DNA from: Candidatus Omnitrophota bacterium
GTDB lineage: Bacteria > Omnitrophota > Gorgyraeia > Gygaellales > Profunditerraquicolaceae
Reading direction: 5' to 3'
Length of the DNA stretch: 64,000 nt
Assembly (NCBI GenBank): GCA_030691865.1
Contig: JAUYDL010000029.1
Span: 4,721-68,720 of the forward strand
Position numbers and translations under genes: made by a program. The stretch's first letter is position 1; each line of letters starts with the position of its first letter. Positions 27,160 to 60,192 of the stretch are shown here, one piece after another. A model generated the notes under the pieces. The model was given only the letters and a program-made list of their open reading frames with translations. It was not told where the DNA came from and did no database searches.

Positions 27160-27163
27160 TCCT

Positions 27164-30356: not shown

Positions 30357-30374
30357 TGCACTTATCTAAAACTA

Positions 30375-30416: not shown

Positions 30417-30486
30417 GTTGCAGTAATTATCCTTCCAGGACTCTTCTTTACAATAATAACCACAGACGGAATTATCGTTAATTATT

Positions 30487-31176: not shown

Positions 31177-31179
31177 TCA

Positions 31180-37439: not shown

Positions 37440-37457
37440 ATAAATACAAACACTTTA

Positions 37458-39518: not shown

Positions 39519-39522
39519 CGCC

Positions 39523-41049: not shown

Positions 41050-41050
41050 A

Positions 41051-42451
41051 TTATCTAAAGAATGAAATTATTTTTTGTAAAATAATACTAGCATGAGATA
41101 TTGTCCTTATATTTCTAAGATTATGTAAAATTATTTTTGGTCTCAAATAAAATCTTAAAAAAAACCAACGATACCAATAACGTAACTGCTTATCAGTTAG
41201 TTTCGGCGGAATATAAGAAAAGTTCCCATATTGCATCTTATTAGAAATAATATCTTTTTCGCTAATTTCTCCACTAGCAATTAATCTATCTGTAATCGGA
41301 GTGCCCGGTAAAGGAATAAATCTAGTTAAGCTTATCCTGACTAAAGGTAGAGACGAAACAAACTTTATAGTCCTACGCAATGTTGCTAAGGTCTCCAGCG
41401 GATAACCCACCATAACAAAACCAATTATATCAATTCCATGTGCATAGATAAGTTTTATTTTTTCTGTTATCATCTCTAAGCTTATCCCCTTGCCGATATC
41501 TTTTAATATTTCAGGATCCCCGGATTCAATCCCCACCGCAACTTCATAGCAACCGGATTCTTTCATAGCGACAAGTAACTTTTCATCTAAAGTATCTAAC
41601 CGCAGCCCATTAGGACAGGTCCATAATAAATCCAAACGCCGTTTAATCAATTCATTAGCAAACTCTAAAGCCGCACTGTTAGGAAAAGTAAAATTATCAT
41701 CTATAACCTGAAATTCCCTAAGACCGTACTTATTCTTTAGATATTCTAATTCATCAACCACGCTAACCGGATCTCTTCTCCTGACCTTGTAACCGGTAAT
41801 ATTCCTGCTCCCGCAAAAAGAACAACGATACGGACAGCCCCGCGATATCATAATTGGCAATACCGGCAACCTTCTATAAAAAAATCCATGTACTGCATTA
41901 CCATATAGCCGAGGATTAAGTTCATCCCAATCCGGCGAGCCGATAGCATCAAGATCCTCAACATACTCATGATGAGATACTAATATCTCATCATTTTCTC
42001 TCCAGGCAAGATTAGGAATTTGCTCTAATGAGCTTTTATCCATCCTCCCGCTATTAAACAACTCCAGAAGCCTTACAACTGCCACCTCCCCTTCTCCGAC
42101 AACCAGGAAATTAACTTCTTTTAGCAAATTAAATACAGATTTAGGATTTGAAGAAGGCGCCGGCCCGCCAATAATTATCGGAATATCCAAAGACTCTTTT
42201 CGCACTGCCCGGACATATTCTTTAATTTTCCCCAGGTCCATGTCAAAAGCCTGAAAACCTATAAATCTGTAATCCTTAATTAATATATGCTTAAATAATT
42301 CTTCCGGCAAAACTCCTAAAACATTACAATCAAAAATACGTACAGTAAAACCATTCTTTTTAACGTAATTAGCGATAAACCCTAATCCTAATGGCGGAGT
42401 GTATTGAAGATTATAGCTGCTCAAAGGTTTAATTAATAATAAATCGTACAT
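41051..42451 (-). CDS. Cobalamin-binding (class B) radical SAM enzyme.
   Basis: An N-terminal B12-binding-like domain, then CPYRCSFCGS (CxxxCxxC). Confidence 0.75.
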   Translation of the reverse strand: MYDLLLIKPLSSYNLQYTPPLGLGFIANYVKKNGFTVRIFDCNVLGVLPEELFKHILIKDYRFIGFQAFDMDLGKIKEYVRAVRKESLDIPIIIGGPAPSSNPKSVFNLLKEVNFLVVGEGEVAVVRLLELFNSGRMDKSSLEQIPNLAWRENDEILVSHHEYVEDLDAIGSPDWDELNPRLYGNAVHGFFYRRLPVLPIMISRGCPYRCSFCGSRNITGYKVRRRDPVSVVDELEYLKNKYGLREFQVIDDNFTFPNSAALEFANELIKRRLDLLWTCPNGLRLDTLDEKLLVAMKESGCYEVAVGIESGDPEILKDIGKGISLEMITEKIKLIYAHGIDIIGFVMVGYPLETLATLRRTIKFVSSLPLVRISLTRFIPLPGTPITDRLIASGEISEKDIISNKMQYGNFSYIPPKLTDKQLRYWYRWFFLRFYLRPKIILHNLRNIRTISHASIILQKIISFFR

Positions 42452-42452
42452 G

Positions 42453-43850
42453 CTAATACCGTTTAAGAAATAAATTGAATGATCTTTTAACCTTGTTCAA
42501 TGTTTTTGCCAGCCTCTTGCTTCCCAAAACCTTCTTCTGGACTAATGCAACCGGAATTAAATCCCAAAAATATTTAACGGTATAAGAGATTTTAATTCCG
42601 CAATGATTCACTAACTTTCGCCATCTATTTAAAGTCTTCATACTATGTTCTCTAGTATAATAATAGACATCTCCACTTTTAACCCAGATCTTGGCATCAA
42701 ATTTATTTTCCTTAATTAAATCGGAATAAACTTTGGTTCCCGGAAGCACATAAAGCATCGAAGCCCCCGCTCCATGCGTTGACCTTATGTTAGCATTGGC
42801 GTAATCCACTGTTTCTTTTATCGTTGCCTCGGTTTCACCGGGAGTCCCCACACAGAAAAATGCCGAAGTAGTCATCTTGTCCGTAAACTTAGCGCAGATA
42901 TCAAAAGCGGTTTTAACCAATTCCCGGGTAATCTTTTTATTTATTTTACCAAGTATATTCTCGGATAAAGTTTCTACTCCCCAGGTTATATGCCTACATC
43001 CTGAATCCGCCAATTTAGCCACCATCTCTTCATTCACCGGAGTAACTCTACAGGAAATCGCATATTCTATATCTAGTTTTTTTAACACCTCTGTAATCTT
43101 AATCGTCCTATCTATTCCCAGATTAAATGTATCATCGTGAAAAAAAATACGCTTTGCCCCCATTCTTTTCACATATTCCACTTCCTGAGCTATTCTTTCA
43201 GGGGAATTCATCCGCACGTTTTGCCCCCAAAAAGATGAGGTGGAACAAAACGAGCAGTTGACCGGACAGCCCCGCGAAGTTATTAAGTATGCGAGCTTCT
43301 TTTGCCTAATTTCTTCTGCAGCGTAAGAATAATCCGGTAAAGCTAATTCATCTAGATCCTTAACCAGTCCAAAAACTCTGTTGGATAAAAAACCCTTATC
43401 CTTATCTTTGTATACTAAACCACTAATAGTTGATAGGTCCCCGCCTTGCTTGAGAGCCTGGCAAAGCCCAGGCAATGACCTCTCTCCTTCAGACTGAATT
43501 ATAAAATCTAAATCATGGTAAAAATATTTAAAAGTCTGTTCATAAAGAGTAGCCGGATGAACTCCGCCCAGCACAACCAAGATCTTCCTATCTATTTTCT
43601 TTATTTGTCTTAATAGCTTAAACGCGCCCCAACGGTTAAAAGAATTAAATGATATCCCGACCAAATCCGGCTTTTTAGTCCTAACTGTAGATAAAAATAA
43701 CCTAATACTCGGATTAAATTCTTTTCCATTATAATTATAAATATCGACTTCATGCTGCTTATTTAAGGAAGCTGAAAGATACCCTAGGCCCAAAGGATAA
43801 CCTTTTAAATTTAACTCTGAAGTTGGAGGATAAACCAGGGCTATTTTCAT
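42453..43850 (-). CDS. Cobalamin-binding (class B) radical SAM enzyme.
   Basis: An N-terminal B12-binding-like domain, then CPVNCSFCST. Confidence 0.75.
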   Translation of the reverse strand: MKIALVYPPTSELNLKGYPLGLGYLSASLNKQHEVDIYNYNGKEFNPSIRLFLSTVRTKKPDLVGISFNSFNRWGAFKLLRQIKKIDRKILVVLGGVHPATLYEQTFKYFYHDLDFIIQSEGERSLPGLCQALKQGGDLSTISGLVYKDKDKGFLSNRVFGLVKDLDELALPDYSYAAEEIRQKKLAYLITSRGCPVNCSFCSTSSFWGQNVRMNSPERIAQEVEYVKRMGAKRIFFHDDTFNLGIDRTIKITEVLKKLDIEYAISCRVTPVNEEMVAKLADSGCRHITWGVETLSENILGKINKKITRELVKTAFDICAKFTDKMTTSAFFCVGTPGETEATIKETVDYANANIRSTHGAGASMLYVLPGTKVYSDLIKENKFDAKIWVKSGDVYYYTREHSMKTLNRWRKLVNHCGIKISYTVKYFWDLIPVALVQKKVLGSKRLAKTLNKVKRSFNLFLKRY

Positions 43851-43858
43851 TTTAAAGA

Positions 43859-44578
43859 TTAGTTTTTACACACGCAGACAAAATCCGAAGCAACCTTAAG
43901 ATTAGACCGGGTAAGCCTAAAATCATTAATATTTATAATCTTGTAGAACCTCTTTACCGGATTAATCCCATCCGGTAAAAATTTAAAAATTCCGCTTTTC
44001 TTAAGCCTTAAATAAAAATAATGCCTGGGGCTTAAATGCAGGCCATAGATTGTAACTTCTTTAAATACTCTTAACAAAGTCTCTCGCAGCTCTTCTAGCC
44101 TAAACTCTTTACAATGCGCAAGATTCTTTTTATAAGTTTTAGGCGATTTCATAACTTTATCTAAATTCAAAGTCGACAAATACAGCGTTCCTTTATCTTT
44201 TAGCACTCTTCTTAACTGATTAAGGTATACCGGAATTAACTCCTCCGGAATATGCTCAATTACTTGAAAAGAACAAACGATATCAAATTCCTGGTTTTTA
44301 AACTCCAATTTCAAAGCATCCATCGCTAAATACTTTAGATTATCAGCTTTATATTTCTTTTGCGCAGACAATACGACTTCAGATTCATAATCCACACCCT
44401 GAACAAACTTAGCCCTTTCGGCTAAAAAAGCACAACCATACCCATCCCCACAGCCAACATCAAGCACAGATTTACCAAGCACATTATCTTTGATAAAAGA
44501 ATAAACCTTAAGGTGCTGTAAATAAAAACTACGATCAGTCTCTTCAGGAATTATTCTTGTCTCGATCTTCTTAAGCAT
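43859..44578 (-). CDS. Class I SAM-dependent methyltransferase.
   Basis: VLDVGCGDGYGCAFLAERA, motif I. Confidence 0.75.
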   Translation of the reverse strand: MLKKIETRIIPEETDRSFYLQHLKVYSFIKDNVLGKSVLDVGCGDGYGCAFLAERAKFVQGVDYESEVVLSAQKKYKADNLKYLAMDALKLEFKNQEFDIVCSFQVIEHIPEELIPVYLNQLRRVLKDKGTLYLSTLNLDKVMKSPKTYKKNLAHCKEFRLEELRETLLRVFKEVTIYGLHLSPRHYFYLRLKKSGIFKFLPDGINPVKRFYKIININDFRLTRSNLKVASDFVCVCKN

Positions 44579-45278
44579 TTTTTCCTAACCAAAATTTTAC
44601 CTTTAATATCGTCCACAGCGCGGGAATCATATCCGTGGCCTTAACCGTTTTACCTTCTTTATGTGTCCGGGGCTTGTAATAGACAGGAATCTCCCCGGTT
44701 TTATATCCACCCTTGCAAAGTTTACTTACCAACTCAAATGCAAAAGCCTGGCTACTAGCCTTACAGTTAAGTTTCTTTAAAACATTGATTTTAATTAAGT
44801 TTGTGCCGATAATATCAGTAAAATGTTTTCCGTACAACAGATTTATGAAAAATGTTGCGATAATCGTCCCCAGCCAAAAAGGCCTTTCTTTGATCAATTC
44901 TATGTTTGAGGTATTCACCCTACCTAAAAGGCGTGAACCAAAAACAACATCCAGGCCTTCATTTTCCATTTTATCTATCATTTTTAAGGCATCTTCCATC
45001 TTGTATTCCAGATCCGCACCAGGCCCATAAACATAATCGCCTTGCGCCAGGCATATTCCTTCCCAGCCCGAATATCCGGCACCCATATTTTTAGAGTGGA
45101 GAATTATTTTAAGCGTTTTGTCATCCTTTAAACCATCCAATATTTCTTTTGTACCGTCAGTTGAGCAGTTATCTATAACAATTATTTCCTTATCAATCTT
45201 TAATACCTTAGCTTCTTGGATGGCTTTTAAGATTGTCAGTTTTTCATTAAAGCAACCTATAATAATTGTCAGTTTCAT
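44571..45278 (-). CDS. GT2 glycosyltransferase (DPM1/GtrB-like).
   Basis: MKLTIIIGCFNEKLTILKAI...IIVIDNCSTDGT. Confidence 0.7.
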   Translation of the reverse strand: MKLTIIIGCFNEKLTILKAIQEAKVLKIDKEIIVIDNCSTDGTKEILDGLKDDKTLKIILHSKNMGAGYSGWEGICLAQGDYVYGPGADLEYKMEDALKMIDKMENEGLDVVFGSRLLGRVNTSNIELIKERPFWLGTIIATFFINLLYGKHFTDIIGTNLIKINVLKKLNCKASSQAFAFELVSKLCKGGYKTGEIPVYYKPRTHKEGKTVKATDMIPALWTILKVKFWLGKNA

Positions 45279-46585
45279 ATTGTCATTCTGAAAAAATTAT
45301 GTAAAATCCTCTCTACATAAGATAACATTGGCTTGGTAAGCCCCGGATAAACTCCTATCCAAAACAGATTATTCATAACTAAATCGGTGTTTTTTAAATT
45401 TCCTAACACTCGATGTTTTATATTTTTATAAGCCGGCTGCTTAAGTAAGTTCCCTCCAAATAACATTCTGGTGACAATCTTATTACTTTCAAGATAATTA
45501 ACAATCTCTGCCCTTTTAAACGGCACATTTTCCTTAACCAGAATAGGAAAACCAAACCAGCTTGGATCAGAATACATCTGCGCCTGTGGCAGTATAAAAT
45601 AATCGTTATATTTCTCAAAAATTTTATATAAGAATTTAAAGTTTCTTTTCCTTGCGTCAATAAAACCGGGTAGTTTTTCCAGTTGCGCGCAGCCGATAGC
45701 CGCCTGCATATCGGTAACCTTTAAGTTATATCCAATATGCGAATACACATACTTATGGTCATAGCTATAGGGCAAATCGCCAAACTTTTGCTTAAATCTC
45801 ATTTTACAAGTATCATCATGCCCCGGTTCACACCAACAATCTCTCCCCCAATCACGAAAAGACATTATTATCCTTCTTAATAACGGATTATTAGTTAAAA
45901 CCGCTCCGCCCTCTCCCATGGTCAAATGGTGAGGTGGGTAGAAACTACAAGTAGAGATATCACCAAATGTTCCAGTATATCTACCCTTATATTTGGATCC
46001 AAGACTATCGCAATTATCCTCAAGCCACCATAATTTATGTTTCTTTACTATCTGATTAATCTTATTAATATTTACCGGATTCCCCAACGTGTGCGCCGTA
46101 AAAATCGCCTTTGACTTTTTAGTAATCGCTTTTTCTATTTTTTCTGCCTGTATATTATATGTTCCCATCTCTACATCAATGAATACGGGCACAAGGTTAT
46201 TCTGTAGAATCGGATTAAGCGTTGTCGGAAAACCGCAAGCAGTAGTAATTACTTCATCTCCGGGTTTTAATTGCCTTTCCTTTAACAGCGGCGAAGTCAA
46301 TGCGGAAATTGCTAATAGGTTTGCCGATGAGCCTGAATTTGTAAGTAAACAAGATTTAACGCCTAAGAAACTTCCAAGCTTCTCCTCAAACATAGCAGCG
46401 TATCTTCCTGCAGTTAGCCAAAAATCAAGAGATGCATCAACTAAATTTATTAATTCCCTGGAATCATAAACTCTGCCGGCATAATTAATTGTATTTTCAC
46501 CAGAAATAAATTTTTTTTCTTTCGCTTCGGATTTATACAGCTTTTCAATTAATTTAAATATCTTTTTTCTGATTTTATTTTTCAT
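45275..46585 (-). CDS. DegT-family PLP/PMP-dependent enzyme, RfbH/DdhC-like (CDP-6-deoxy-4-keto-hexose 3-dehydrase type).
   Basis: 436 aa, with length and N-terminal region (GENTINYAGRVYDSRELINLVDASLDFWLTAGRY) typical of RfbH/E1. It sits in a CDP-sugar context with rfbF/rfbG-like genes. Confidence 0.7.
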   Translation of the reverse strand: MKNKIRKKIFKLIEKLYKSEAKEKKFISGENTINYAGRVYDSRELINLVDASLDFWLTAGRYAAMFEEKLGSFLGVKSCLLTNSGSSANLLAISALTSPLLKERQLKPGDEVITTACGFPTTLNPILQNNLVPVFIDVEMGTYNIQAEKIEKAITKKSKAIFTAHTLGNPVNINKINQIVKKHKLWWLEDNCDSLGSKYKGRYTGTFGDISTCSFYPPHHLTMGEGGAVLTNNPLLRRIIMSFRDWGRDCWCEPGHDDTCKMRFKQKFGDLPYSYDHKYVYSHIGYNLKVTDMQAAIGCAQLEKLPGFIDARKRNFKFLYKIFEKYNDYFILPQAQMYSDPSWFGFPILVKENVPFKRAEIVNYLESNKIVTRMLFGGNLLKQPAYKNIKHRVLGNLKNTDLVMNNLFWIGVYPGLTKPMLSYVERILHNFFRMTI

Positions 46586-47656
46586 TTAATCAATAAAGTC
46601 CTCTTTTGTAAACACCTCAGAATAAAGCACTGGAAGTGGTTTACCGTATATTTTCTTAATTTCATAATCATTAATAAATTTTCTGTCCTCCGCAATAAGA
46701 CAGGTATCAATATAATTTTTAAAGTATTTAATCTTCATCCCCCGTTGAATAATATCTTTTAACGACTCTTCAAAGAAGTTCCCCAATGAAACATGAATAT
46801 ACGGACATGGCATAACATCACCATATTTTGTGATAGATACCATTCTTTTTACCGCTATGCAACCCAAATTAAGGCCATACGCTGGAGTTAGATGTGTGAA
46901 TACATTATATTTTTTTTCCAGTTCGCGCATATACTCCATATCATCTTTACTAATAAGGACATTGTAATTCCCTTCCCATGCCCCGACAGGTTTGGCGTAT
47001 GTTACAAATACCCCCACTCCTTTTTTCTTCGCAAATTCCAGGAATTCAATAAATTCCTGCGACCTAACCCTTTGTTTGGTAACTACAGTCGCCAATATGA
47101 TATTTAGTCCTGCATCCAGACATGCATCGATTGCTTTTATCGCTCTTTCATGCGAACCGGCTTTACGCCTGAATTCATCGTGCTCAGTTGCAGAAAGGCT
47201 GTCCAGGCTTAGTTGAATCTTATCTAACCCTATATTCTTTAAATGTTTTGCTTTTTTAGCATCTAAAAACCATCCATTAGTGTCTGAGGTTATATAAAAC
47301 TTCTGCGGGTCAATCGCCTTGACTATATCATCAAAATCAGGAAAAACTAATGGCTCCCCGCCAGTAATTACAATATGCGCTAAGCCCATTTCGTCAGCTT
47401 GCCGCGAAAGCTCCTTTACATCCTTAATCGTAAAGAACCTGCTCCCGTTTTTACCCCGCAGCTTAGTTATATCGCAATGCTGACAGGCAAAATTACATGT
47501 ATAGTCGTATTGAAATTGTAATATAGCTACACTTTCTCCCCGCTTGATTTTTTCATCATATTTCATAATCTTCTCATAAACATACGGCTTTTCTTTTTTC
47601 AGAAGTTTTCTTTTTTCGTTTTCTTCCGGTTTTAATTGCCCTTGTTGAGCCATCAT
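46586..47656 (-). CDS. Radical SAM enzyme (CxxxCxxC), possibly with a twitch/SPASM-like C-terminus.
   Basis: YDYTCNFACQHCD, with additional C-terminal cysteines. Confidence 0.7.
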   Translation of the reverse strand: MMAQQGQLKPEENEKRKLLKKEKPYVYEKIMKYDEKIKRGESVAILQFQYDYTCNFACQHCDITKLRGKNGSRFFTIKDVKELSRQADEMGLAHIVITGGEPLVFPDFDDIVKAIDPQKFYITSDTNGWFLDAKKAKHLKNIGLDKIQLSLDSLSATEHDEFRRKAGSHERAIKAIDACLDAGLNIILATVVTKQRVRSQEFIEFLEFAKKKGVGVFVTYAKPVGAWEGNYNVLISKDDMEYMRELEKKYNVFTHLTPAYGLNLGCIAVKRMVSITKYGDVMPCPYIHVSLGNFFEESLKDIIQRGMKIKYFKNYIDTCLIAEDRKFINDYEIKKIYGKPLPVLYSEVFTKEDFID

Positions 47657-47660
47657 GATA

Positions 47661-49334
47661 TCAATCTCCTAAGCTAAACGAAAGACTAAACATCTCTGCA
47701 TATTTACGCCAAAAAGGTTTTTCTGTTATAATTGCCTTTGCGGTATCCATGTATTGTCGCGCTTTTTCCAGATTACCAAGTTTCTCGTAGCATTCTGCGG
47801 CATAGTAATATGCGATAGCATGGTCGCTTTTCGCTCTTATTGCATTCTCAAATCCTTTCAATGCCATTTCGTAATTTCCCAGGCGGAAGTCGCTGTTATA
47901 TACAAAATTAAGCTCCAAATTTAAGATATATGCCATTTCCTGTATATATTCAGCGGTAAAATCTTCGGTTTCGACAACCGCTTTTTTATAATTGGTATCA
48001 GTAATCCGGCCTTTAAAATAATTTTTTTTAAGGCAGATATCGTACATTTCACTTCCTACAAGAGGAGTGGCAACATTAATTCTAAACCAGTTTGCATAGA
48101 TAGTTTTCAAAAAAATTCTTGAATCCTCAATATCCTGTTTTGTTTCACCAGGCAACCCGATTAAAATATTAACATCAGAATATATTCCAACTTCACGGCA
48201 ATCGTTAATTACACCTTTAATTATAGAAAGGTTAAGCGGTTTGTGCATTATTTCCTTTAAAACCCTTTTGCTTCCTGACTCAACCGACAAAACAAGCTGA
48301 TTAACGCCTACCCTTTTAAAAGCTTCAAGCATTCCCCTGTCAAGAACATAAAGAGCCAATGAATTTGGAAAAAAAGCTGTTAACTGCAATTCCTTAAGTA
48401 TATCAATGATTTCATAAACCCTTTGTTTATCCGCCATTAAGTGATCATCCTGAAAAATAATTGTCTTCGTACTGTATTGGTCTCTAAGGCGTTTAAAATC
48501 CTCTTTGATTCTGGGTAGGCTATAATAACGCATCTTTTTGCCGTGTACCGTGTGTGATGAACAAAAACAACAATTAAAAACACAACCTCTAGAAGTCATC
48601 GCAACTAAATTTTGCTTTTTTCCGGTGACAGAAAGGTAAGCTGCTATTGTTGGGTTTGTTCGATAATCGTCTATTTCCAAAATGTCAAAATCATAAAAAG
48701 GAATTTCATCAAGGTCTTCTATATAATCATGCCTGAATGACTCCTTGTTTTCAGTTTTTCTCCGCGTAATCCACGATGGATTTTCTTCAAGGTACTGCAA
48801 TTTATCATCGGCTTTGACAAGGCCTAACAAAGGCTTTTCGCCTTCACCGTAGCAAAGGGTATCAAAACATATACTATCTCTAAAAATTTCATTATACATA
48901 TTTGTTGGCACACCGCCACCGGCAACTATCATAGCATTCGGAAATATACCGCGGCAGCACTGCGCAATATCCAGCATACTTTGATATAACGGAGTAAATA
49001 ATGCGGATATCCCTACTATGCTCGGGGCATAATCAACCCACGTTGGCGATGAAAGAAATCCTTGGAAAAAACCAGCAAAAGAAGAAAATTCGAAGCTTTT
49101 TATTTTATTTAAAACACAGTTAAAATCAATAAGTTTCGCTTGGGTTTCAGTATACTTTTTCAGATACGCACTCAAAGATATTATACCTAAAGGCATGTCT
49201 GTAATTACAGCTCCGAAGGTACCTGATTTCTTTGACACTGCTTTTACATTGTAAGGGGGATTGACAAAATCGTCATAATTAATATTCGGCGGGACTATAA
49301 ACAATATTCTATCCATATATTGCCTTATCAACAA
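47661..49334 (-). CDS. Cobalamin-binding radical SAM enzyme with a C-terminal TPR-like region.
   Basis: A B12-binding-like N-terminus, CVFNCCFCSS, and C-terminal TPR-like repeats. Confidence 0.7.
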   Translation of the reverse strand: MLIRQYMDRILFIVPPNINYDDFVNPPYNVKAVSKKSGTFGAVITDMPLGIISLSAYLKKYTETQAKLIDFNCVLNKIKSFEFSSFAGFFQGFLSSPTWVDYAPSIVGISALFTPLYQSMLDIAQCCRGIFPNAMIVAGGGVPTNMYNEIFRDSICFDTLCYGEGEKPLLGLVKADDKLQYLEENPSWITRRKTENKESFRHDYIEDLDEIPFYDFDILEIDDYRTNPTIAAYLSVTGKKQNLVAMTSRGCVFNCCFCSSHTVHGKKMRYYSLPRIKEDFKRLRDQYSTKTIIFQDDHLMADKQRVYEIIDILKELQLTAFFPNSLALYVLDRGMLEAFKRVGVNQLVLSVESGSKRVLKEIMHKPLNLSIIKGVINDCREVGIYSDVNILIGLPGETKQDIEDSRIFLKTIYANWFRINVATPLVGSEMYDICLKKNYFKGRITDTNYKKAVVETEDFTAEYIQEMAYILNLELNFVYNSDFRLGNYEMALKGFENAIRAKSDHAIAYYYAAECYEKLGNLEKARQYMDTAKAIITEKPFWRKYAEMFSLSFSLGD

Positions 49335-49342
49335 TCATAATA

Positions 49343-50479: not shown

Positions 50480-50488
50480 AAAATACTC

Positions 50489-52870: not shown

Positions 52871-52873
52871 GCC

Positions 52874-53749
52874 TTATCTCCCCTTATTTTTTTCGATAAT
52901 CTGCTTATTTGAATCATACCAGTTATATAAAGCTTTAAGCGACTTATCAATCGGAGAAAACTTAAAATCTTTCAATTCATCCAAAATTAATGAATTATCC
53001 CCGCTATATTCTTGGCCAAGTCCTTCGGTTTTAATGATTATCTTCAATTTTTTACCGGATATTTTAGCAATTTTATCAGCTATACCCTTAAAATCGACAG
53101 TCTCCCCGGTGCATACGTTATAGACGTTCTTCCGGGGTTTGTTATCGATAAACCATTTTACGATTTTTACCAAATCATCAATATATAAGAAATCAAAGAA
53201 TTTATTTTGGTTAATACTAACGGGTAAGCCAAGAACAGCATTGCAGCAAGCATTTGGAATAAAACGAGTGCGCCAATCATCATATTTACCAAAAACGCCA
53301 AAAAGCCTAAGATTGTAAATATTGCTGCTTGACTGCGCGTATTTAGTCATTATATACTTTGAGAAACCGTATTGATCTTGCGGAACATGCTGGTTGAAAT
53401 ATTCTTCCTTCATCTTAGGTATCCAGTTTTCCCTGCCAAACTCCGCGCCCGAGCCAAAATAAATCATTTTTCCAAAATAATCCTTACATCTGGCAAGGTT
53501 AAAAAACATTTTCAAATTATTTTCCAGGACTTTTAAAGGATCTTTTATGGAATGTTTTGGCGCGGCGTCATAGGTAGCCGTATGGATAATTACATCAAAT
53601 GCGTTACTCTTTATATAATCAAAAATCTTCTGTGAGTCTAAAAGATTAAGTTCTCCACTATTTAAAGAAACAATATCGTATTCGCTATTTAATTGTTCAG
53701 ATAAATTTCGAGCAATAAATCCAGTTCCTCCGGTGATTAATATTTTCAT
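52874..53749 (-). CDS. NAD(P)-dependent sugar epimerase/reductase (SDR).
   Basis: MKILITGGTGFIARNL. Confidence 0.75.
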   Translation of the reverse strand: MKILITGGTGFIARNLSEQLNSEYDIVSLNSGELNLLDSQKIFDYIKSNAFDVIIHTATYDAAPKHSIKDPLKVLENNLKMFFNLARCKDYFGKMIYFGSGAEFGRENWIPKMKEEYFNQHVPQDQYGFSKYIMTKYAQSSSNIYNLRLFGVFGKYDDWRTRFIPNACCNAVLGLPVSINQNKFFDFLYIDDLVKIVKWFIDNKPRKNVYNVCTGETVDFKGIADKIAKISGKKLKIIIKTEGLGQEYSGDNSLILDELKDFKFSPIDKSLKALYNWYDSNKQIIEKNKGR

Positions 53750-55545
53750 GGTTCTTCTATGGGCTTTAGGATCATATTCGCCTTGAATTCTTTTCTATCT
53801 AAAAACGGCCAAAGGTCTTCCATGGGCTTTGAGACCATCTGGCCATCAGGTTTAGCTTCCGATGATACTTTAGGTTGAGTTAATAGATCAGGGTTTACCA
53901 TAACCTCGCATACAACCGGGCCGCGAGAATTAAGGATTAAATTAATTTTCTCTTTTAATTTTTGATGATTACTAAGTTTGAAAGTTTTCAAACCATAGGC
54001 CTTGGCTATTTTTAGCGTATCCGGCAAAGTCAAACCGCTTGAGGGGTCGCAACCTACTAGGCGCCCGCCAAAGAATTTTTGATGCGTGGCCCTAATTGAT
54101 GCATAGGCATTATTGTTTAAAACAAATACCTTAATTGGTAACTGATACCTTTTTAATAATTCTAATTCCTGAATATTATGCTGTAATCCTCCGTCTCCTA
54201 CTAAACAAATAGTCCGCCTCTTACCGCTGGCAATACAGGCGCCGATACTCGCCGGCAAGCCAAACCCCATCGCTCCTAAACCCGGAGAATTAAAGATTCT
54301 CTGCCCCTGTTTAACTTTGAATGTTTGCATGGTTATCTCACTACAGCTGCCAGAACTGCCCGGGACAATTAGATCATCCTTAGTTAGCAATTCAGACAAT
54401 GTATCCACCAAAACATAAGTATTCAGGAATTTCTTTTCTTGTTTAAATTCAGCTAAAACAACCGGATATTTTTTCTTCCAAGACTGACACCTATTTAACC
54501 ATTTTTCAGTATCTAAATTTATTTGATTAGCTTTAATTAAAAGGGCATTTAAAAATCTTGCGGCATCTAGATTAAACTTTATATCGATTTTAGTTGCGAT
54601 CTTTTCTATCTCATACTCATCAATATCAACAATAACTTTTCTGGCTGCTCTGGCAAAATTGCCATAATTATAGGCAACTTGCGCCACATCTAACCTTGCG
54701 CCAATACAAATTATCAAATCCGCGTTTTGCTGGGCAAAGTTTGCACCACGTTGTCCGACAGAACCCGGCCGGCCAACATATAAAGGATGATCCTGCGGCA
54801 AAATATCTAAAGATCTCCAGGTGGTTAATACCGGAATTCTTGTTTCTTTAATTAACTTTTTAAACTGGTTAATCCCCTTAGCCAATCTAATGCCATTACC
54901 GGCTAAAATAATCGGCCGCTTAGATTGATTAATTAATTTTATCAGCCGATTGATTTTATTATTTAGGCGTTTTTCTTTACTGATCTGTTTTGGCTTAATA
55001 AATTCTTTTAATTTATTTTTATCAATCATTGCTCCCTGAACATCCAGCGGTATATCCAGCCAGACCGGCCCCATTCTTCTTTCGCGAGCGTAATAAACAG
55101 CTTTATCTAAATGGTACTTTATATCTTTAGGCTCCATAATCGTAGCTGCGTATTTAGTAATGGGCTTAACTAATGAAACGATGTCTACTTCTTGGGGCCC
55201 AATTTGACGCACCCCCTTACCAAGCATTAAATCCGCTTTTTTAACTTGCCCTGAAATAATCAAAACAGGGGTAGATTCAATCCAAGAAGCAGCCACCCCG
55301 GTAATAGCATTGGTTCCACCCGGCCCAGTCGTTACTAAAGCCGCTCCAATGTTACCGGTATATTGACTATAAGCATCCGCGGCAATTGCGCAGGCCTGTT
55401 CATGCAAATTAACAACAAACTTTAATTTCTTATTTCTGCCTAAAGAATCCACCAGATGCATGCACCCGCCGCCTGGCAGCATAAAGATATTTTTTACGCC
55501 TAAACCGGCAATATACCCCATTACATAATCAGATAATTTAATCAT
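53746..55545 (-). CDS. Thiamine-diphosphate-dependent enzyme (acetolactate-synthase-like; YerE-type candidate).
   Basis: 599 aa with N-terminal, central and C-terminal ThDP-binding domains (...GPGGTNAITGVAASW..., ...GDGGLQHNIQEL...). Confidence 0.8.
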   Translation of the reverse strand: MIKLSDYVMGYIAGLGVKNIFMLPGGGCMHLVDSLGRNKKLKFVVNLHEQACAIAADAYSQYTGNIGAALVTTGPGGTNAITGVAASWIESTPVLIISGQVKKADLMLGKGVRQIGPQEVDIVSLVKPITKYAATIMEPKDIKYHLDKAVYYARERRMGPVWLDIPLDVQGAMIDKNKLKEFIKPKQISKEKRLNNKINRLIKLINQSKRPIILAGNGIRLAKGINQFKKLIKETRIPVLTTWRSLDILPQDHPLYVGRPGSVGQRGANFAQQNADLIICIGARLDVAQVAYNYGNFARAARKVIVDIDEYEIEKIATKIDIKFNLDAARFLNALLIKANQINLDTEKWLNRCQSWKKKYPVVLAEFKQEKKFLNTYVLVDTLSELLTKDDLIVPGSSGSCSEITMQTFKVKQGQRIFNSPGLGAMGFGLPASIGACIASGKRRTICLVGDGGLQHNIQELELLKRYQLPIKVFVLNNNAYASIRATHQKFFGGRLVGCDPSSGLTLPDTLKIAKAYGLKTFKLSNHQKLKEKINLILNSRGPVVCEVMVNPDLLTQPKVSSEAKPDGQMVSKPMEDLWPFLDRKEFKANMILKPIEEP

Positions 55546-56123
55546 AATAATCTATTTATTTCTGCCAAAGCAGCTGTAACTGATAAATTGCTCTTATTCC
55601 AAGGTTTGCCCACTAATATGCCTCTTATCCCTAATTCTTTGGCCTGGCGGATATTTTCTTCGCTATCCTCAACCAAAACATCAATTTTATTTAGCCATTT
55701 TAAATAATCAGCTTTAGTATTACCATAATTCGGTGCCTGCTCATTTACCCTTAGTGATGGAACAAAATTAAAGCTCCTGATCCATTTGCCAAAGTTCCTC
55801 ATAACCCAATCAGCGGATATGTGCGCTGCTTTTATTGGAACAAAGGTTAAAGCAATATGCCTTGCCTTATCTCCAAACTCTTCAAACCATGCCAATACTT
55901 CCGGATCAGGTTTTATTTCAGAATATGCTTTTGATAATCTAAAACTATCTAAAGATGATAAATATTCTTCTTTAGTGCTCCTGATAATACGTTCTGGGGT
56001 ATTTTCCGTTATTTGTTCAAAATTGACTTTACAATCAGGATGTTCAGGCAACCACTTATTAACCAACCAACAGCGCATTAAATCATTTAATATGTCATCC
56101 ACATCCCAAACGATAGTTATCAT
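55542..56123 (-). CDS. HAD-superfamily phosphatase (5'(3')-deoxyribonucleotidase-like).
   Basis: N-terminal IVWDVDDILNDL (DxDx motif). Confidence 0.35.
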   Translation of the reverse strand: MITIVWDVDDILNDLMRCWLVNKWLPEHPDCKVNFEQITENTPERIIRSTKEEYLSSLDSFRLSKAYSEIKPDPEVLAWFEEFGDKARHIALTFVPIKAAHISADWVMRNFGKWIRSFNFVPSLRVNEQAPNYGNTKADYLKWLNKIDVLVEDSEENIRQAKELGIRGILVGKPWNKSNLSVTAALAEINRLL

Positions 56124-56136
56124 TAATCAATGGCCT

Positions 56137-57672
56137 TTACTTTATTGCTTCGTATAGCCAATCCGACCTAAAGGTCATCTGGGTTTTTCTGTCTTTATTA
56201 CTTGATATTGTTTTATCCTCATAAAAAGAATCGTCTTGATAATGCGTTGTGGATACTTCTTCAAAAATAACTCCTTCTTTAGAAGAGAAATCGTGATTTA
56301 CGCCCCTTTCCACTGTCAACATACCGCCGGCTTTAAGTAATTTGACTTCCTTGCCAATCGTAACATCCATGCTTCCGTATAAAACCTGAAATGTCTCTTC
56401 TTTTTTAACATGATAATGAAAAGGGTGCTTTTGCCCGGGTAACATGATAATAAGTTTTTTGCAATATTCACGATTAATACAATTTAAGATAGCCGCTCCC
56501 CATTCTTCATACCTATCTATCCCGTAATGGTGAGACAATTCCAAATCAATCTTTTCAGGTAAAGCTATATGGCTTTTTAAAATCACCTCTTTTAATTCTT
56601 TAATAATCTTGAGGACCTTTTCACGTAAATTTCTTATTTTTAAATCATTAAAATTGACGGCTGCGTTAGCCTTTAAGTTTCTATCAAGAATATATTCTAT
56701 ATATTTGGATATATCATTGGCAACGAGCTGACCTTCTTGACAAGGTATCGCATAAAAAACATAATCTTTGGTTAACTTTTCTCCTAGCTTTAGGTCAACC
56801 TTGGCAAATACCCCTCTTTTTAGCCCTTTCAAATCATTTCTTTCTTTTTCGGTTATCAGATATCGGCCTTCTTCAACACCATCCATTTGATAAGCATCTT
56901 GTGCGGCGCCAAGCCATTTATCTATTTGGCTAGGGACAGAAGAATAAGCGTTTATCGAGTACTTTTTCGACTCAATAACAACATGCCTTTCAAAAACTTT
57001 TGCCCCTTTAGCAATGGCAATTTTTATGGAATCTATATTATCGGGTTCTTCGTGCGTAGAAAAACCAACCGCGATACCCGGATAACGCTCTCTTAATAAA
57101 TCAATCTGGTTTAACTGAAGATTATCCCTTTTGGTTGGATACTCACCTACACAATGCATAATACAAAGATTCTTATTCCTGTGTTCGAAGAAGGTAACCA
57201 CCTGATCGATCTCTTCTAATGTAGCGCTTGCCGTAGATGCTATTATCGGCAAATCAGTTTGGGCTATTCTTTCTAATAACGGCCAATCAGTAAAAGAACA
57301 GCTGCCGATTTTTATAACACTGAAATCATGTTTTTCTATTAGGTCTACGGATTTTTCATCAAAAGGCGTGCAAATCGGCATAAAGCCTGCGCTACAGATC
57401 TCATCTTTGAGCGCCTTAAGTTCCTTTTCACTTAAACGAGTTTCTTCGAAACGCTTAACGTATTTAATATCTGCCCTGCCCTTGGAATCCGGATGAATAA
57501 AAGTATCTAAGTTTCTGTATTGAAGCTTGAAACCAAATTTAAAATCATATTTTTTACAGGCTTTGCCTATCTCTCTAATAATATTGATTCCGTGCTTTAA
57601 ATCTCCGGAATGGTTATTGGCCAATTCAAATATGAATAATTTATTAAATATTGATGCCTTAAGCATAAACAC
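56137..57672 (-). CDS. NeuB-family (sialic/pseudaminic acid synthase-like) aldolase fused to a C-terminal cupin-like domain.
   Basis: LANNHSGDLKHGINIIREIGKA... (NeuB) and a C-terminal HPFHYHVKKEETFQVLYGSMDVTIG (cupin-like). Confidence 0.65.
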   Translation of the reverse strand: MFMLKASIFNKLFIFELANNHSGDLKHGINIIREIGKACKKYDFKFGFKLQYRNLDTFIHPDSKGRADIKYVKRFEETRLSEKELKALKDEICSAGFMPICTPFDEKSVDLIEKHDFSVIKIGSCSFTDWPLLERIAQTDLPIIASTASATLEEIDQVVTFFEHRNKNLCIMHCVGEYPTKRDNLQLNQIDLLRERYPGIAVGFSTHEEPDNIDSIKIAIAKGAKVFERHVVIESKKYSINAYSSVPSQIDKWLGAAQDAYQMDGVEEGRYLITEKERNDLKGLKRGVFAKVDLKLGEKLTKDYVFYAIPCQEGQLVANDISKYIEYILDRNLKANAAVNFNDLKIRNLREKVLKIIKELKEVILKSHIALPEKIDLELSHHYGIDRYEEWGAAILNCINREYCKKLIIMLPGQKHPFHYHVKKEETFQVLYGSMDVTIGKEVKLLKAGGMLTVERGVNHDFSSKEGVIFEEVSTTHYQDDSFYEDKTISSNKDRKTQMTFRSDWLYEAIK

Positions 57673-57685
57673 CTCTTCTTAAATA

Positions 57686-58426
57686 TTATATATCAATACA
57701 AAGCCCATCTCTGGCGGCTATCGTGTGCTTAAAAATCTTGCGAGCGAATTCTTTAGCTGATCTTATATCGCTTTCTTTTAGGTAAACGCCGGAATCAAAA
57801 TGCGCCAAAAATAATTTCTTGACTTTCCCCTGCTTAGCGATCAAAGCAGCCTGTTGGGGATTAAGATGCGGCCAATGGTTATCAATTTTACCCGGAGGCA
57901 AAGATGACTCAGTGATCAAAATATCCGCTCCTTTAGCTAATAGATCAAGATTCCTACAAGGCCCGGTATCCGTACAAAAAACTATCGCTTTATTATCTGC
58001 AAATACCCGGTATCCATAACAAGTGCCAATGTGACGGAGTTCTTTGTATTCAATATCTACCGGCAGCTTTAAATTATTCGAAAATTCATTTACCATTAGC
58101 TTTGTCTTAAGCTTGTTAACCGGCATTGAATAAGGGGCATTGATAATAACCTTAAATAACCTCTTTACCCCCTTGGGGCCAAAAACCTTAATTCCCTGGA
58201 TAAAATTAAATTTAGCTAAAGCGTGTAATCCGATGATATGGTCTAAATGGAAATGGCTAAGTAAAACTATGATTGGCTTATTTTCTTTTATATATTGATC
58301 AAGCTTATAGAATCCGCCCCCGGCGTCAAAAACAATATAAGCCTGATTCGTATCCAGCAAAATACAAAGCGTATTGCCTAGGGCCGTATCATACCAACCG
58401 CTTGTTCCTAAGAAATGTAGTTTCAT
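57686..58426 (-). CDS. MBL-fold metallo-hydrolase.
   Basis: HFHLDHIIG. Confidence 0.7.
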   Translation of the reverse strand: MKLHFLGTSGWYDTALGNTLCILLDTNQAYIVFDAGGGFYKLDQYIKENKPIIVLLSHFHLDHIIGLHALAKFNFIQGIKVFGPKGVKRLFKVIINAPYSMPVNKLKTKLMVNEFSNNLKLPVDIEYKELRHIGTCYGYRVFADNKAIVFCTDTGPCRNLDLLAKGADILITESSLPPGKIDNHWPHLNPQQAALIAKQGKVKKLFLAHFDSGVYLKESDIRSAKEFARKIFKHTIAARDGLCIDI

Positions 58427-59406
58427 GCCTGATTAAAATATTCCGCGTACCATTTGCCAGTTTTGCGAAGGCCTTCTCTTAGGCTATAGCTAGGCTTCCA
58501 GCCTAAAATGCGTCGGGCTTTTGCGGAAGAAAGATACTGTTTTTTTATTTCATATCTAGCTGTATTTATGATTTTATAATTTAATTTCTTTGCGCCGGGA
58601 TAAAATTTACCGATTTCCTTTAATAGTTTAATTACCGTCACCGGCTTCTCATCACTTAAATTAAAAGCTTCTCCGAAGAGTTTGCGCCTGGTCAATAGCT
58701 CAGCTATCCGAATATAACCAGCGACGATATCATCAATGTAAACATAATCGCGCACAAACTTTCCATCGCTGCGTATCTTTAATTTTTTATTTAAAACCAA
58801 ACTTCGCATGGCATCCGGTATAAGCCGGCTGAAATTAAAATCTCCCGGGCCGTATATATTGCCGCACCTGGTGATTGCTACCGGTAAATTATAGGTGTGC
58901 GCGTAAGTATAAGCGATCAGGTCAGCGCAGCTTTTAGACACGTCATAAGGGTGATTACCTTGTAATGGCGCATCTTCCTTATATGGTAAATTTTTATGGG
59001 CTCCGTATGCCTTATCGCTTGAAGCGATAATAATTGACTGAATATTTTTAGAATTCCTGCATGCTTCCAGAATATTCCAGGTGCCTTCGATATTCGCGGA
59101 AAAAGTCTTTAATGGATTAAAATGGCATTTACCTACAATCGCCTCAGCTGCCAGATGGAATACCAGATTAATTTTATTTTTATTTATAATCCTTTCAACT
59201 AATTTATAATTAACTACGCTGCCTTTAATTACAGCGATCTTCCCATAGTCAGCTTTAGTTAAAACAGTCTTTTTCCTTCTGACCTTGATATCTAAACCAA
59301 ATATTTTTGCACCCGAAGAGGCAAGCGCCTTAGTAAGATTAGAACCCAGAAATCCCTCAAAACCTGTAATTAATACTTTTTTGCCTTTCCAAAATTTATT
59401 ATTCAT
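58423..59406 (-). CDS. NDP-sugar 4,6-dehydratase (CDP-glucose 4,6-dehydratase RfbG-like).
   Basis: FWKGKKVLITGFEGFLGSNL...; the SDR YxxxK motif is present. Confidence 0.65.
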   Translation of the reverse strand: MNNKFWKGKKVLITGFEGFLGSNLTKALASSGAKIFGLDIKVRRKKTVLTKADYGKIAVIKGSVVNYKLVERIINKNKINLVFHLAAEAIVGKCHFNPLKTFSANIEGTWNILEACRNSKNIQSIIIASSDKAYGAHKNLPYKEDAPLQGNHPYDVSKSCADLIAYTYAHTYNLPVAITRCGNIYGPGDFNFSRLIPDAMRSLVLNKKLKIRSDGKFVRDYVYIDDIVAGYIRIAELLTRRKLFGEAFNLSDEKPVTVIKLLKEIGKFYPGAKKLNYKIINTARYEIKKQYLSSAKARRILGWKPSYSLREGLRKTGKWYAEYFNQA

Positions 59407-59415
59407 TACTCCTGC

Positions 59416-60192
59416 TTAATCCTTCCATTTTTTCCATGGCGCTTTACCCTCATCCCAGGACGCCTCTAACTCAGATCTGTCTCTTAATGTATCCATACAC
59501 TTCCAAAAACCATTGTGCTTAAATGCGGCTAGCTGTTTAGCATCCGCCATATCTTTTAAAGAATCAAATTCCCACACAGTTTCATCTCCACTGATATAAT
59601 TAAAAACTTCCGGCTCAAGCACAAAAAATCCACCGTTAATCCAAGAGCCATCGCCTTTGGGTTTTTCAAGAAAAGAATTAACCACCCCTGCTTCTTTCAT
59701 GCTTAAAGCGCCAAACCTTCCGGCAAGCTGCACAGCGGTAACGGTCGCGGATTTTCCGCTGGCTTTATGAAACTTCACCAACTCTTTAATATTAACATCA
59801 CTCACCCCATCGCCATAGGTCATCATAAATGTTTCATTGCCTATGTATTTACGAATACGTTTTAGGCGGCCACCAGTCATTGTTTCAAGCCCGGTATCAA
59901 CCAGGGTAATCTTCCACGGCTCAGATGATGTGGTGTGAACCTTAACCTCGTTTTTCTTTAAATCAATGGTAACGTCGCTCATATGCATAAAATAATGCGA
60001 GAAATATTCTTTCAGCATATAGCTTTTATATCCCAGGCAGATAATAAAATCATTAAAGCCAAAATGGGAATACATCTTCATAATATGCCAAATAATCGGC
60101 TTGTTGCCAATTTCCACCATCGGCTTAGGAATATTAGTAGTTTCCTCGCTAAGCCTCGTCCCTCTGCCACCTGCTAAAATGACTACTTTCAT
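59416..60192 (-). CDS. rfbF: Glucose-1-phosphate cytidylyltransferase.
   Basis: MKVVILAGGRGTRLSEETTNIPKPMVEIGNKPIIWHIMKMYSHFGFNDFIICLGYK. Confidence 0.85.
   Translation of the reverse strand: MKVVILAGGRGTRLSEETTNIPKPMVEIGNKPIIWHIMKMYSHFGFNDFIICLGYKSYMLKEYFSHYFMHMSDVTIDLKKNEVKVHTTSSEPWKITLVDTGLETMTGGRLKRIRKYIGNETFMMTYGDGVSDVNIKELVKFHKASGKSATVTAVQLAGRFGALSMKEAGVVNSFLEKPKGDGSWINGGFFVLEPEVFNYISGDETVWEFDSLKDMADAKQLAAFKHNGFWKCMDTLRDRSELEASWDEGKAPWKKWKD

Follow-up and report, generated by a model that had tools for sequence, protein, structure and literature searches.

Known acyl-branched sugar pathways and the Omnitrophota locus

In the erwiniose (ErwI/J/E/F), caryophyllose (MMAR_2331/2332) and gastriose (MygI/E/F) pathways, a long branch is attached to a dideoxyhexose by a YerE-like, thiamine diphosphate (ThDP)-dependent enzyme, which couples cytidine diphosphate (CDP)-4-keto-3,6-dideoxyglucose with a 4-hydroxy-2-oxo acid made by an aldolase encoded beside the ThDP gene (Steitz et al. 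2022, PMC9306805). ErwE, the erwiniose enzyme, rejects pyruvate (PMC9306805). Acyl-branched sugars such as caryophyllose shape the immune view of bacterial envelopes, and the handful known all come from cultured bacteria. Here we describe a gene cluster from a Candidatus Omnitrophota bacterium, contained in a 64,000-nt stretch of contig JAUYDL010000029.1 (the window, whose numbering is used throughout). It encodes a CDP-3,6-dideoxyhexose core and a YerE-like enzyme together with a different candidate source of the donor, a NeuB-family synthase fused to a cupin and followed by a phosphatase. We consider it about an even bet that the core of the cluster (45275-60192) makes a CDP-3,6-dideoxyhexose with a long, functionalised chain at C-4.

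The locus resembles the described acyl-branched pathways in its genes for CDP-4-keto-3,6-dideoxyglucose, its YerE-like carboligase, an adjoining gene for the (here putative) 4-hydroxy-2-oxo acid and a downstream NAD(P)H reductase; a methyltransferase is also sometimes present in those pathways (PMC9306805). They use a class II pyruvate aldolase (PMC9306805), whereas the window has a phosphoenolpyruvate (PEP)-dependent NeuB-family synthase, a cupin and a haloacid dehalogenase (HAD)-superfamily phosphatase. The window also lacks an E3 reductase, adds a C-methyltransferase and radical S-adenosylmethionine (SAM) enzymes, and belongs to a group found mainly in uncultured phyla and some archaea. Yersiniose A biosynthesis in Yersinia pseudotuberculosis (DdhA-D, YerE, YerF) shares RfbF/DdhA, a 4,6-dehydratase, E1, the ThDP enzyme and a reductase. 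Unlike the window, it forms a two-carbon branch from pyruvate, has a dedicated E3 (DdhD) and is without genes for NeuB, HAD, a C-methyltransferase or radical SAM enzymes.

All coding sequence in the window is on the minus strand (G+C 33-46%), and every gene coordinate given below for the window refers to that strand. Eighteen open reading frames (ORFs) fill 39523-60192 with junctions of -8 to +13 nt, and this tight packing identifies them as one operon. The order of transcription is RfbF, a 327-aa short-chain dehydrogenase/reductase (SDR), a metallo-beta-lactamase (MBL)-fold hydrolase, the NeuB-cupin fusion, a 193-aa HAD protein, the ThDP enzyme, a 291-aa SDR, a 793-aa membrane protein, a C-methyltransferase, a B12-binding radical SAM protein with tetratricopeptide repeats (TPR), a radical SAM/SPASM protein, RfbH, a family 2 glycosyltransferase (GT2), a class I methyltransferase, two further B12-binding radical SAM proteins and a fusion of a nucleotidyltransferase (NTP-transferase) with a GT2. 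Domains were called with Pfam and NCBIfam profiles against their curated cut-offs, and proteins were compared with PDB sequences. These searches bear out the gene observations of a first-pass annotation of 41051-60192. They also add five genes in that interval that were missing from its list: those for the MBL protein, NeuB-cupin, the 193-aa HAD protein, the 793-aa membrane protein and the GT2. The first three of these lie between the dehydratase and ThDP genes.

A CDP-3,6-dideoxyhexose core with a YerE-like enzyme

RfbF (59416..60192) is a glucose-1-phosphate cytidylyltransferase, the enzyme that yields CDP-glucose, and scores 419.6 bits on TIGR02623 against a cut-off of 300. At the other end of the core, RfbH (45275..46585) reaches 717.9 bits on NF011936 (cut-off 423), the model for the E1-type CDP-6-deoxy-4-hexulose 3-dehydrase that depends on pyridoxamine phosphate and a [2Fe-2S] cluster, and its alignment with Yersinia E1 (PDB 3bcx, 540 bits) covers the full length. 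Its motif FYPPHHLTMGEGG is present, with His219/220 standing where aminotransferases have Lys, and the four-cysteine pattern C192-x57-C250-x-C252-x7-C260 is kept. Histidine in place of the aminotransferase lysine and four [2Fe-2S] cysteines are the hallmarks of E1 and SpnQ (PMC8987622). Together with the profile score they mark RfbH as a true E1 dehydrase and rule out a plain aminotransferase. With both RfbF and RfbH above their cut-offs, the route to CDP-3,6-dideoxy-4-hexulose proposed in the first-pass annotation is present.

The intervening step is less clear-cut. The 327-aa SDR at 58423..59406 occupies the position of the CDP-glucose 4,6-dehydratase, and calling it rfbG-like, as was done at first, is fair; its 218.5 bits on the CDP_4_6_dhtase model (TIGR02622) fall short of the cut-off of 278.45, however, and leave the function unproven. 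Most sister loci carry a canonical 361-aa RfbG in the same slot (470 bits; e.g. L054:7708-8793), and judging from these scores the 327-aa protein looks like a non-orthologous replacement in the window's lineage.

The annotation had also remarked on the missing E3/DdhD, and this holds. No Fer2/FNR-type reductase occurs among the window ORFs scanned, and a motif scan of 1143 ORFs in 86 related loci found none either, so the idea that an E3 is encoded at another place in the window or its sister loci is rejected. Its lack is no obstacle, since general ferredoxin or flavodoxin reductases can serve SpnQ (PMC8987622). Because the operon encodes no E3, electrons for RfbH would presumably come from such general ferredoxin/flavodoxin systems.

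The 599-aa ThDP-dependent carboligase (53746..55545) has TPP_enzyme_N, M and C domains, all above cut-off, and a canonical GDG motif (GDGG is visible in the alignment). Its best PDB match is JanthE (8rph) at 396.6 bits, followed by 5ahk, reportedly PpYerE (Hampel et al. 2018), at 274.7 bits; acetohydroxyacid synthases score at most 238. On the acetolactate synthase model TIGR00118 it reaches 385.7 bits, under the equivalog cut-off of 538. A neighbour-joining tree separated E. coli IlvI, IlvB and Gcl from the YerE-like sequences in 100 of 100 bootstraps, in a sample with these three outgroup sequences only and few references, YerE, ErwE, MyGE and MMAR_2332 not being among them. These three lines place the enzyme with YerE, as first proposed, and apart from acetolactate synthases.

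JanthE, from Janthinobacterium sp. HH01 (8rph/8rpi/8rpj), is a YerE-like enzyme (PMC12188165) and the closest solved relative of the window protein, which it matches end to end. It accepts ketones and long keto acids. The two are only about 34% identical. The GDG motif of the window enzyme is CDG in JanthE, which 98 of 100 bootstraps place outside the clade of NeuB-linked enzymes.

Source databases call members of this ThDP family 'acetolactate synthase large subunit', and the best NCBIfam match of the window protein is the acetolactate synthase model. One could therefore suppose that the cluster holds an ordinary acetolactate synthase, or a plain aminotransferase, and yields an ordinary dideoxy or amino sugar. 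We regard this as most improbable. As far as sequence can tell, a true acetolactate synthase is ruled out by the score on TIGR00118, the ranking of PDB matches and the bootstrap split; profile searches of the window ORFs found no ilvN or ilvC nearby, and the residues and score of RfbH are those of a dehydrase.

Homologues of the ThDP enzyme that are at least 62% identical occur in Omnitrophota, Nitrospirae, Planctomycetes, WOR-1 and one archaeon, and an identical protein is listed from a Candidatus Omnitrophota metagenome-assembled genome. Every locus reached through these homologues has the NeuB-cupin and 193-aa genes immediately upstream. RfbF, the dehydratase and RfbH are encoded together with the ThDP enzyme here, and likewise in twenty of the twenty-seven related loci that extend at least 8 kb on each side (the full-flank loci, on which all gene-content counts below are based). 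Judging by its sequence and company, the enzyme is predicted to transfer an acyl anion equivalent onto the ketone at C-4 of the CDP-sugar.

The ThDP stop codon overlaps by 4 nt with the gene for the 291-aa extended SDR (52874..53749; Pfam Epimerase, 114 bits), which lies directly downstream of the ThDP gene in eleven to thirteen of the twenty-seven full-flank loci. A YerE/YerF pairing has been described (PMC9306805). By its position only, we assign the 291-aa protein as a putative YerF-like ketoreductase of the side chain.

A separate arrangement was seen in the uncultured archaeon LFW-280_3_2 (L020), where two ThDP enzymes (ORFs at 3237 and 10594) surround the NeuB-cupin gene. One belongs to the window's clade (63% identity) and the other groups with 5ahk (39%).

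A NeuB-cupin fusion and its phosphatase

The 511-aa NeuB-cupin protein (56137..57672) combines a NeuB-family PEP-dependent synthase domain (residues 1-345; Pfam NeuB, 147 bits) with a metal cupin of the aldose-ketose isomerase type (about 350-511). Its NeuB domain is 53% identical to PDB 3g8r (395 bits), a structural-genomics 'probable SpsE' of unassigned function, and scores at most 80 bits against the real NeuB and PseI structures in the PDB. Sialic and pseudaminic acid synthases were considered and rejected, as both equivalog scores lie under their cut-offs (NeuB_NnaB, 136 bits against 400; PseI, 129 against 340). The domain nevertheless keeps the STHE and FERH motifs, which we take to be the positions of the NeuB metal ligands, and the RGVFA motif of the SAF domain, presumably holding the substrate arginine. 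The synthases of NeuB, PseI or LegI type and those for KDN-9-P or Neu5Ac-9-P likewise have a TIM barrel, a SAF-like domain and a HAD partner. The window protein differs from them in its 3g8r subfamily, its cupin fusion, the lack of a CMP-activating enzyme and the proposed use of its product as a ThDP substrate.

The cupin carries the metal motif GX5HXHX3E. Its best PDB matches are the D-lyxose ketol-isomerase of B. subtilis (2y0o, E 7e-7), L-ribose isomerases and a D-lyxose/D-mannose isomerase (7nzo). Two related loci have a gene for a xylose-isomerase-like TIM-barrel protein (L011:8982-9815; L022:9017-9838) placed between those for the ThDP enzyme and NeuB-cupin, a hint that ketose/aldose interconversion may feed the NeuB step there.

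The 193-aa protein (55542..56123) is a HAD-superfamily phosphatase with a DxD motif (WDVDDIL) and a weak match to the NT5C profile. Its family has 207 matches, mostly named hypothetical, in which D7, D9, D10, T93, K137, D148 and D153 are invariant (HAD motifs I-IV). A search of PDB sequences gave no match. Its AlphaFold2 model (mean predicted local distance difference test score, pLDDT, 95.7) matched C1-cap HAD phosphatases and nucleotidases in Foldseek with probability 1.00, among them HDHD4, which we take to be the Neu5Ac-9-phosphate phosphatase. The archaeal and Methylophaga loci that lack the 193-aa protein have a different HAD_2 phosphatase instead, and for this reason a phosphatase seems to be a required partner of NeuB-cupin.

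The MBL-fold hydrolase (57686..58426; Pfam Lactamase_B_2) is phosphodiesterase-like and has weak matches to RNase Z, cyclic-nucleotide phosphodiesterase and PhnP. It occurs in just three of the twenty-seven full-flank loci, and also adjoins RfbF in L093, described below; it is a lineage-restricted accessory gene.

The cassette in other genomes

We scanned the NeuB-cupin alignment against one genome per species and found relatives in 423 species genomes, spanning more than fifteen bacterial phyla and some archaea. Among the best 80 of these 423, seventy-nine match to query residue 506-511 of 511 and so include the cupin; in the remaining one the contig ends within the match, which reaches residue 478. 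Bacterial hosts include Omnitrophota, Nitrospirota, Planctomycetota, Verrucomicrobiota/Lentisphaerota (including Victivallis), Ignavibacteria, Bacteroidales, Spirochaetota, Firestonebacteria, Saganbacteria, Saccharibacteria, Bacillota and Methylophaga, and the archaeal hosts are Methanoperedens and one other archaeon.

A ThDP enzyme adjoins NeuB-cupin in twenty-five of the twenty-seven full-flank loci. RfbF and RfbH are each present in twenty, the 193-aa protein and the C-methyltransferase each in nineteen, the radical SAM/SPASM protein in seventeen (63-85% identity), and the 291-aa SDR and the TPR-tailed B12-binding radical SAM protein each in thirteen, the latter at 40% identity or more in seven. 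The usual order is RfbF, dehydratase, RfbH, NeuB-cupin, HAD, ThDP enzyme, SDR, C-methyltransferase, B12-binding radical SAM and radical SAM/SPASM. Co-occurrence of the gene set in other genomes had been put forward as a check at the first pass; the core order recurs in other phyla, and the grouping is not a matter of chance. NeuB-cupin, the phosphatase and the ThDP enzyme are the conserved heart of the cassette.

The strongest support for reading NeuB-cupin and HAD as a donor supply comes from a related locus outside the NeuB-centred set. In L093/L096 the order is RfbF (50% identical to the window's), MBL (54%), an acylating acetaldehyde dehydrogenase (398 bits, cut-off 282), a 4-hydroxy-2-oxovalerate aldolase (323 bits, cut-off 286) and a ThDP enzyme that is 43% identical to the window's and branches just outside the NeuB-linked clade. 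With this ThDP enzyme, the dehydrogenase and aldolase reproduce the ErwJ/ErwI/ErwE arrangement in the slot held in the window by NeuB-cupin and HAD, a module swap.

The first-pass annotation had drawn its analogy with YerE, in which pyruvate provides a two-carbon branch. That reading overlooks the conserved NeuB-cupin and HAD genes upstream of the ThDP gene. In a fuller form of it, the ThDP enzyme would use pyruvate, the SDR would reduce the two-carbon branch, the C-methyltransferase and B12-binding radical SAM enzymes would methylate the product repeatedly, and NeuB-cupin, HAD and MBL would serve another sugar. We think this unlikely. It draws on the use of pyruvate by YerE (PMC9306805) and its acceptance by JanthE, the closest solved relative (PMC12188165), as well as on a gene complement of three B12-binding radical SAM proteins and two SAM methyltransferases in sets that vary among related loci. 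It is opposed by the contiguity and joint conservation of NeuB-cupin, HAD and ThDP genes across phyla, and by the slot in L093/L096, where the pair is of a kind known to supply long donors. The core moreover has no second nucleotidyltransferase or CMP-ulosonate synthetase that could activate a separate NeuB product, the B12 enzymes lie under every methyltransferase family cut-off, and two of the three belong to a separable module (see below).

A second alternative takes its cue from the layout of pseudaminic and legionaminic acid loci, textbook examples in which a 4,6-dehydratase, a DegT-family enzyme, a nucleotide-releasing hydrolase and a NeuB-type synthase act in turn. The tailored dideoxyhexose would be freed from CDP by the MBL or a NUDIX protein together with HAD, and NeuB would condense it with PEP to a deoxy ulosonic acid of at least nine carbons; the ThDP enzyme would either branch the hexose beforehand or process the keto acid afterwards. 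The MBL and HAD proteins are present in the window, and a NUDIX protein, whose sole family match is a weak one to GDP-mannose mannosyl hydrolase, occurs in twenty-eight related loci. We hold this to be quite unlikely. Profile scans of the window and the recurrent families of the cassette contain no CMP-ulosonate synthetase (CTP_transf_3), so the product would not be transferable. RfbH is a dehydrase and not an aminotransferase, and the cupin isomerase is left without a role. The NUDIX gene is absent from the window and elsewhere sits in the tailoring block and not beside NeuB, while the recurrent GT2 genes are of the type that passes nucleotide-activated sugars to polyprenyl phosphate.

Proposed pathway

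We propose instead that the NeuB-type domain supplies the donor for ThDP branching. NeuB-type condensation of PEP with an aldehyde yields a 4-hydroxy-2-oxo acid. Its product would thus fall in the same class of compound as the aldolase-made donors, and it is on this ground that we read NeuB-cupin as donor supply. A further consideration is that no CMP-ulosonate synthetase recurs: a CDP-linked adduct would stay activated, and a free nonulosonic acid would be without a route to the glycan.

In the part of the pathway that the sequences support, RfbF would form CDP-glucose, the 327-aa SDR would dehydrate it to CDP-4-keto-6-deoxyglucose, RfbH would strip the 3-hydroxyl to give CDP-4-keto-3,6-dideoxyglucose, and the YerE-like enzyme would join a decarboxylated alpha-keto acid to the C-4 ketone. 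The keto acid may be a 3-deoxy-2-ulosonic acid made next door and not pyruvate. For this the cupin would turn a ketose into an aldose of manno or lyxo type, the kind on which NeuB-family enzymes act, the NeuB-type domain would condense that aldose with PEP, and HAD would remove a phosphate before or after the condensation; a pentose substrate would give a C7 branch, as in gastriose, and a hexose a C8 branch. In a YerF-like step the 291-aa SDR might then reduce the ketone of the side chain, the TcaB9-type enzyme might C-methylate beside the keto group, the radical SAM/SPASM and TPR-tailed B12 enzymes might tailor the product, and the GT2 would hand the sugar on, probably via polyprenyl phosphate. 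Transfer of this kind is suggested by the GT2 genes of GtrB/ArnC/PgfS type and GtrA-like flippase genes in sister loci. We are confident of the CDP-sugar and YerE-like part and put the role of NeuB as donor supplier slightly above even, both being our own estimates and tied to no single test. The product is thus likely to be an undescribed cell-surface sugar, a long-chain acyl-branched 3,6-dideoxyhexose of the caryophyllose or gastriose type and not a two-carbon analogue of yersiniose.

Several observations weigh against this proposal. Two full-flank loci (L025 and L047) have NeuB-cupin and radical SAM genes with no ThDP gene within 10 kb. The characterised relatives of the cupin act on unphosphorylated sugars, which makes the HAD step hard to place. 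JanthE (PMC12188165) and YerE (PMC9306805) accept pyruvate, and a two-carbon branch is thus possible. The NUDIX protein of the twenty-eight loci, or the MBL of the window, could free the sugar from its nucleotide and so fit a nonulosonic-acid-like route. To these may be added the sub-threshold score of the 327-aa SDR and the sparse references of the ThDP tree.

Our search of the literature, which did not extend to a survey by Krug et al. (2024), found no earlier link between NeuB-cupin/HAD and ThDP sugar branching. That survey, reportedly done in silico, is said to include more than 200 YerE-like clusters. To our knowledge NeuB-cupin/HAD as a donor module for ThDP branching is new, though an earlier description is possible.

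If the proposal is right, NeuB-type synthases gain a second role outside sialic acids, as suppliers of donors for ThDP carboligation. The cassette suggests that ThDP branching logic reaches far more widely, into Omnitrophota, Nitrospirota, Planctomycetota, Lentisphaerota, candidate phyla and some archaea, with the donor made differently there, via a relative of sialic acid synthase. It offers a testable function for the NeuB subfamily of PDB 3g8r and suggests a candidate physiological setting for JanthE-like biocatalysts, and its conserved radical SAM enzymes point to new sugar chemistry. More tentatively, and with some doubt on our part, the pathway may be a widespread source of unseen surface sugars of thirteen to fourteen carbons, in which an ulosonic acid of eight or nine carbons, less CO2, is placed on C-4 of the CDP-3,6-dideoxyhexulose and the radical SAM enzymes methylate, deoxygenate or cyclise the adduct.

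Tailoring enzymes of the cassette

The C-methyltransferase (49343..50479) is of the TylCIII/TcaB9 type that acts on nucleoside diphosphate sugars, with an N-terminal Zn ribbon (CxxC...CxCxxC). Methyltransf_23 and Methyltransf_14 are above their cut-offs and Methyltransf_13 (21.7 bits) is under its own (31.3). The best PDB matches are TcaB9, KijD1 and the mycarose 3-C-methyltransferase, at about 70 bits and 1e-18.

Pfam domains and a CxxxCxxC motif in every protein support the initial count of four radical SAM proteins, three of them B12-binding; the motifs of those three are at residues 251, 195 and 206. The 356-aa radical SAM protein at 46586..47656, whose SPASM/twitch domain is partial (only PDB matches MoaA and BlsE, about 54 bits), is the most conserved tailoring enzyme of the cassette. 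The 557-aa B12-binding protein with a C-terminal TPR (47661..49334) has AprD4 as its best PDB match (52 bits), and orthologues at 56-69% identity occur in seven of the full-flank loci and eighteen loci overall. By synteny, both clearly belong to the sugar cassette.

Like GenK, Fom3 and PhpK, the B12-binding proteins have an N-terminal B12-binding domain and a radical SAM core with CxxxCxxC. The radical SAM proteins of the window match no named NCBIfam family above its cut-off, whether for lipid, tRNA or other substrates, and the three B12-binding ones stay far under: their best matches (Sden_1168, ApyD, HpnJ, PhpK and a ladderane-lipid radical SAM) score 90-164 bits against cut-offs of 360-750. 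B12-binding radical SAM enzymes also catalyse reactions other than methylation, as BchE and HpnJ do. A sugar heavily C-methylated by class B radical SAM enzymes, as first envisaged, is therefore unproven: no methyltransferase family cut-off is reached, and two of the enzymes lie in the separable module described below. The three are mutually only about 25% identical, and they were rejected as recent duplicates.

The 793-aa membrane protein (50489..52870) has six transmembrane (TM) helices, a spermidine-synthase-like domain of the kind that binds SAM or decarboxylated SAM (a weak Spermine_synth match) and seven more TM helices in a TM scan. Its orthologue was found in one other locus only (L024, 75% identity), and it is an accessory insertion between the SDR and C-methyltransferase genes. 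A possible role is to decorate the glycan with an aminopropyl-type group at the membrane. The soluble 235-aa GT2 (44571..45278) resembles polyprenyl-phosphate sugar synthases, with weak NCBIfam matches to AglJ, PpgS, dolichyl-P hexose transferase and ArnC; in other loci its place is taken by the GT2 of GtrB/ArnC/PgfS type and the GtrA-like flippase noted above.

A separable accessory module

The lower third of the cluster, at 36669-44578, is a separable module. It contains a 239-aa class I SAM methyltransferase (43859..44578; Pfam Methyltransf_25/11), B12-binding radical SAM proteins of 465 aa (42453..43850; Pfam) and 466 aa (41051..42451; Pfam), a 508-aa fusion of a sugar-1-phosphate nucleotidyltransferase with a polyprenyl-phosphate-type GT2 (39523..41049; Pfam and NCBIfam), which lies just beyond the interval of the first-pass annotation, and a 686-aa protein (37458..39518). 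The last has about thirteen TM helices in a TM scan, a C-terminal soluble domain and no Pfam match, and is a candidate GT-C-type transferase of the module.

No orthologue of the methyltransferase was found in 87 loci, and none of either radical SAM protein in 85 NeuB-centred loci. In L093, orthologues of the 465-aa (64%) and 466-aa (67%) proteins flank an orthologue of the 13-TM protein (45%), and the module there also has a UbiA resembling decaprenyl-phosphate phosphoribosyltransferase. In L094, an orthologue of the 466-aa protein (56%) is followed only by one of the NTP-transferase/GT2 fusion (57%); no recognisable CDP-hexose gene is near it, and the sole ThDP enzyme of this locus is a distant one (565 aa, 25% identical) on the opposite strand. 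The recurring module spans L093:10001-15804 and L094:10001-12897, and its partner varies between the UbiA-like protein (L093) and the NTP-transferase/GT2 fusion (the window and L094). This recurrence is a hint that a polyprenyl-phosphate-linked sugar is modified by radical SAM chemistry, and the module probably acts on a second, lipid-linked sugar.

The idea that three class B radical SAM enzymes work on one sugar is accordingly not supported, as the 465-aa and 466-aa proteins travel with other genes; among the radical SAM proteins, only the 557-aa B12 and SPASM enzymes are conserved with the cassette. Closely related loci carry other combinations of B12-binding radical SAM and methyltransferase genes around the same core. 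The loci are better described by a core that stays constant and a set of tailoring and accessory genes that varies, much as among serotypes. Homologues of the 466-aa protein in the candidate phyla radiation (CPR) and DPANN were considered as evidence of function and set aside; the single context examined, a CPR (Portnoybacteria) locus, was uninformative.

Surroundings of the operon

The operon sits within a surface-glycan locus of lipopolysaccharide type, with GT9 heptosyltransferases, two Wzy_C genes, ManC, a GmhB-like phosphatase and a PseB-like dehydratase around it. A gene for an AAA_14/DUF4143 ATPase (60203-61594, minus strand) separates rfbF from a Wzy_C gene. Related locus L001 has rfbF directly after Wzy_C, so the ATPase gene looks as if it had been inserted into the window's operon. 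The glycan locus also harbours defence and toxin-antitoxin genes, at 26169-32656 and 17359-18393 (minus strand). They include AbiEii (28721-29581), AbiEi (31961-32656), two NTP_transf_8 nucleotidyltransferases, a calcineurin-like phosphoesterase, a helix-turn-helix protein and a RhuM-family protein.

The left edge of the window (1 to about 4400, minus strand) cuts through an ORF of 1469 codons or more; its N-terminus resembles an SMC chromosome-segregation ATPase and is ordinary. Two neighbouring paralogous GalT-like genes (GalP_UDP_transf/DUF4921, HIT-type) occupy 15197-17224 (minus strand), adjoined by genes for GAPDH, PGK and TIM.

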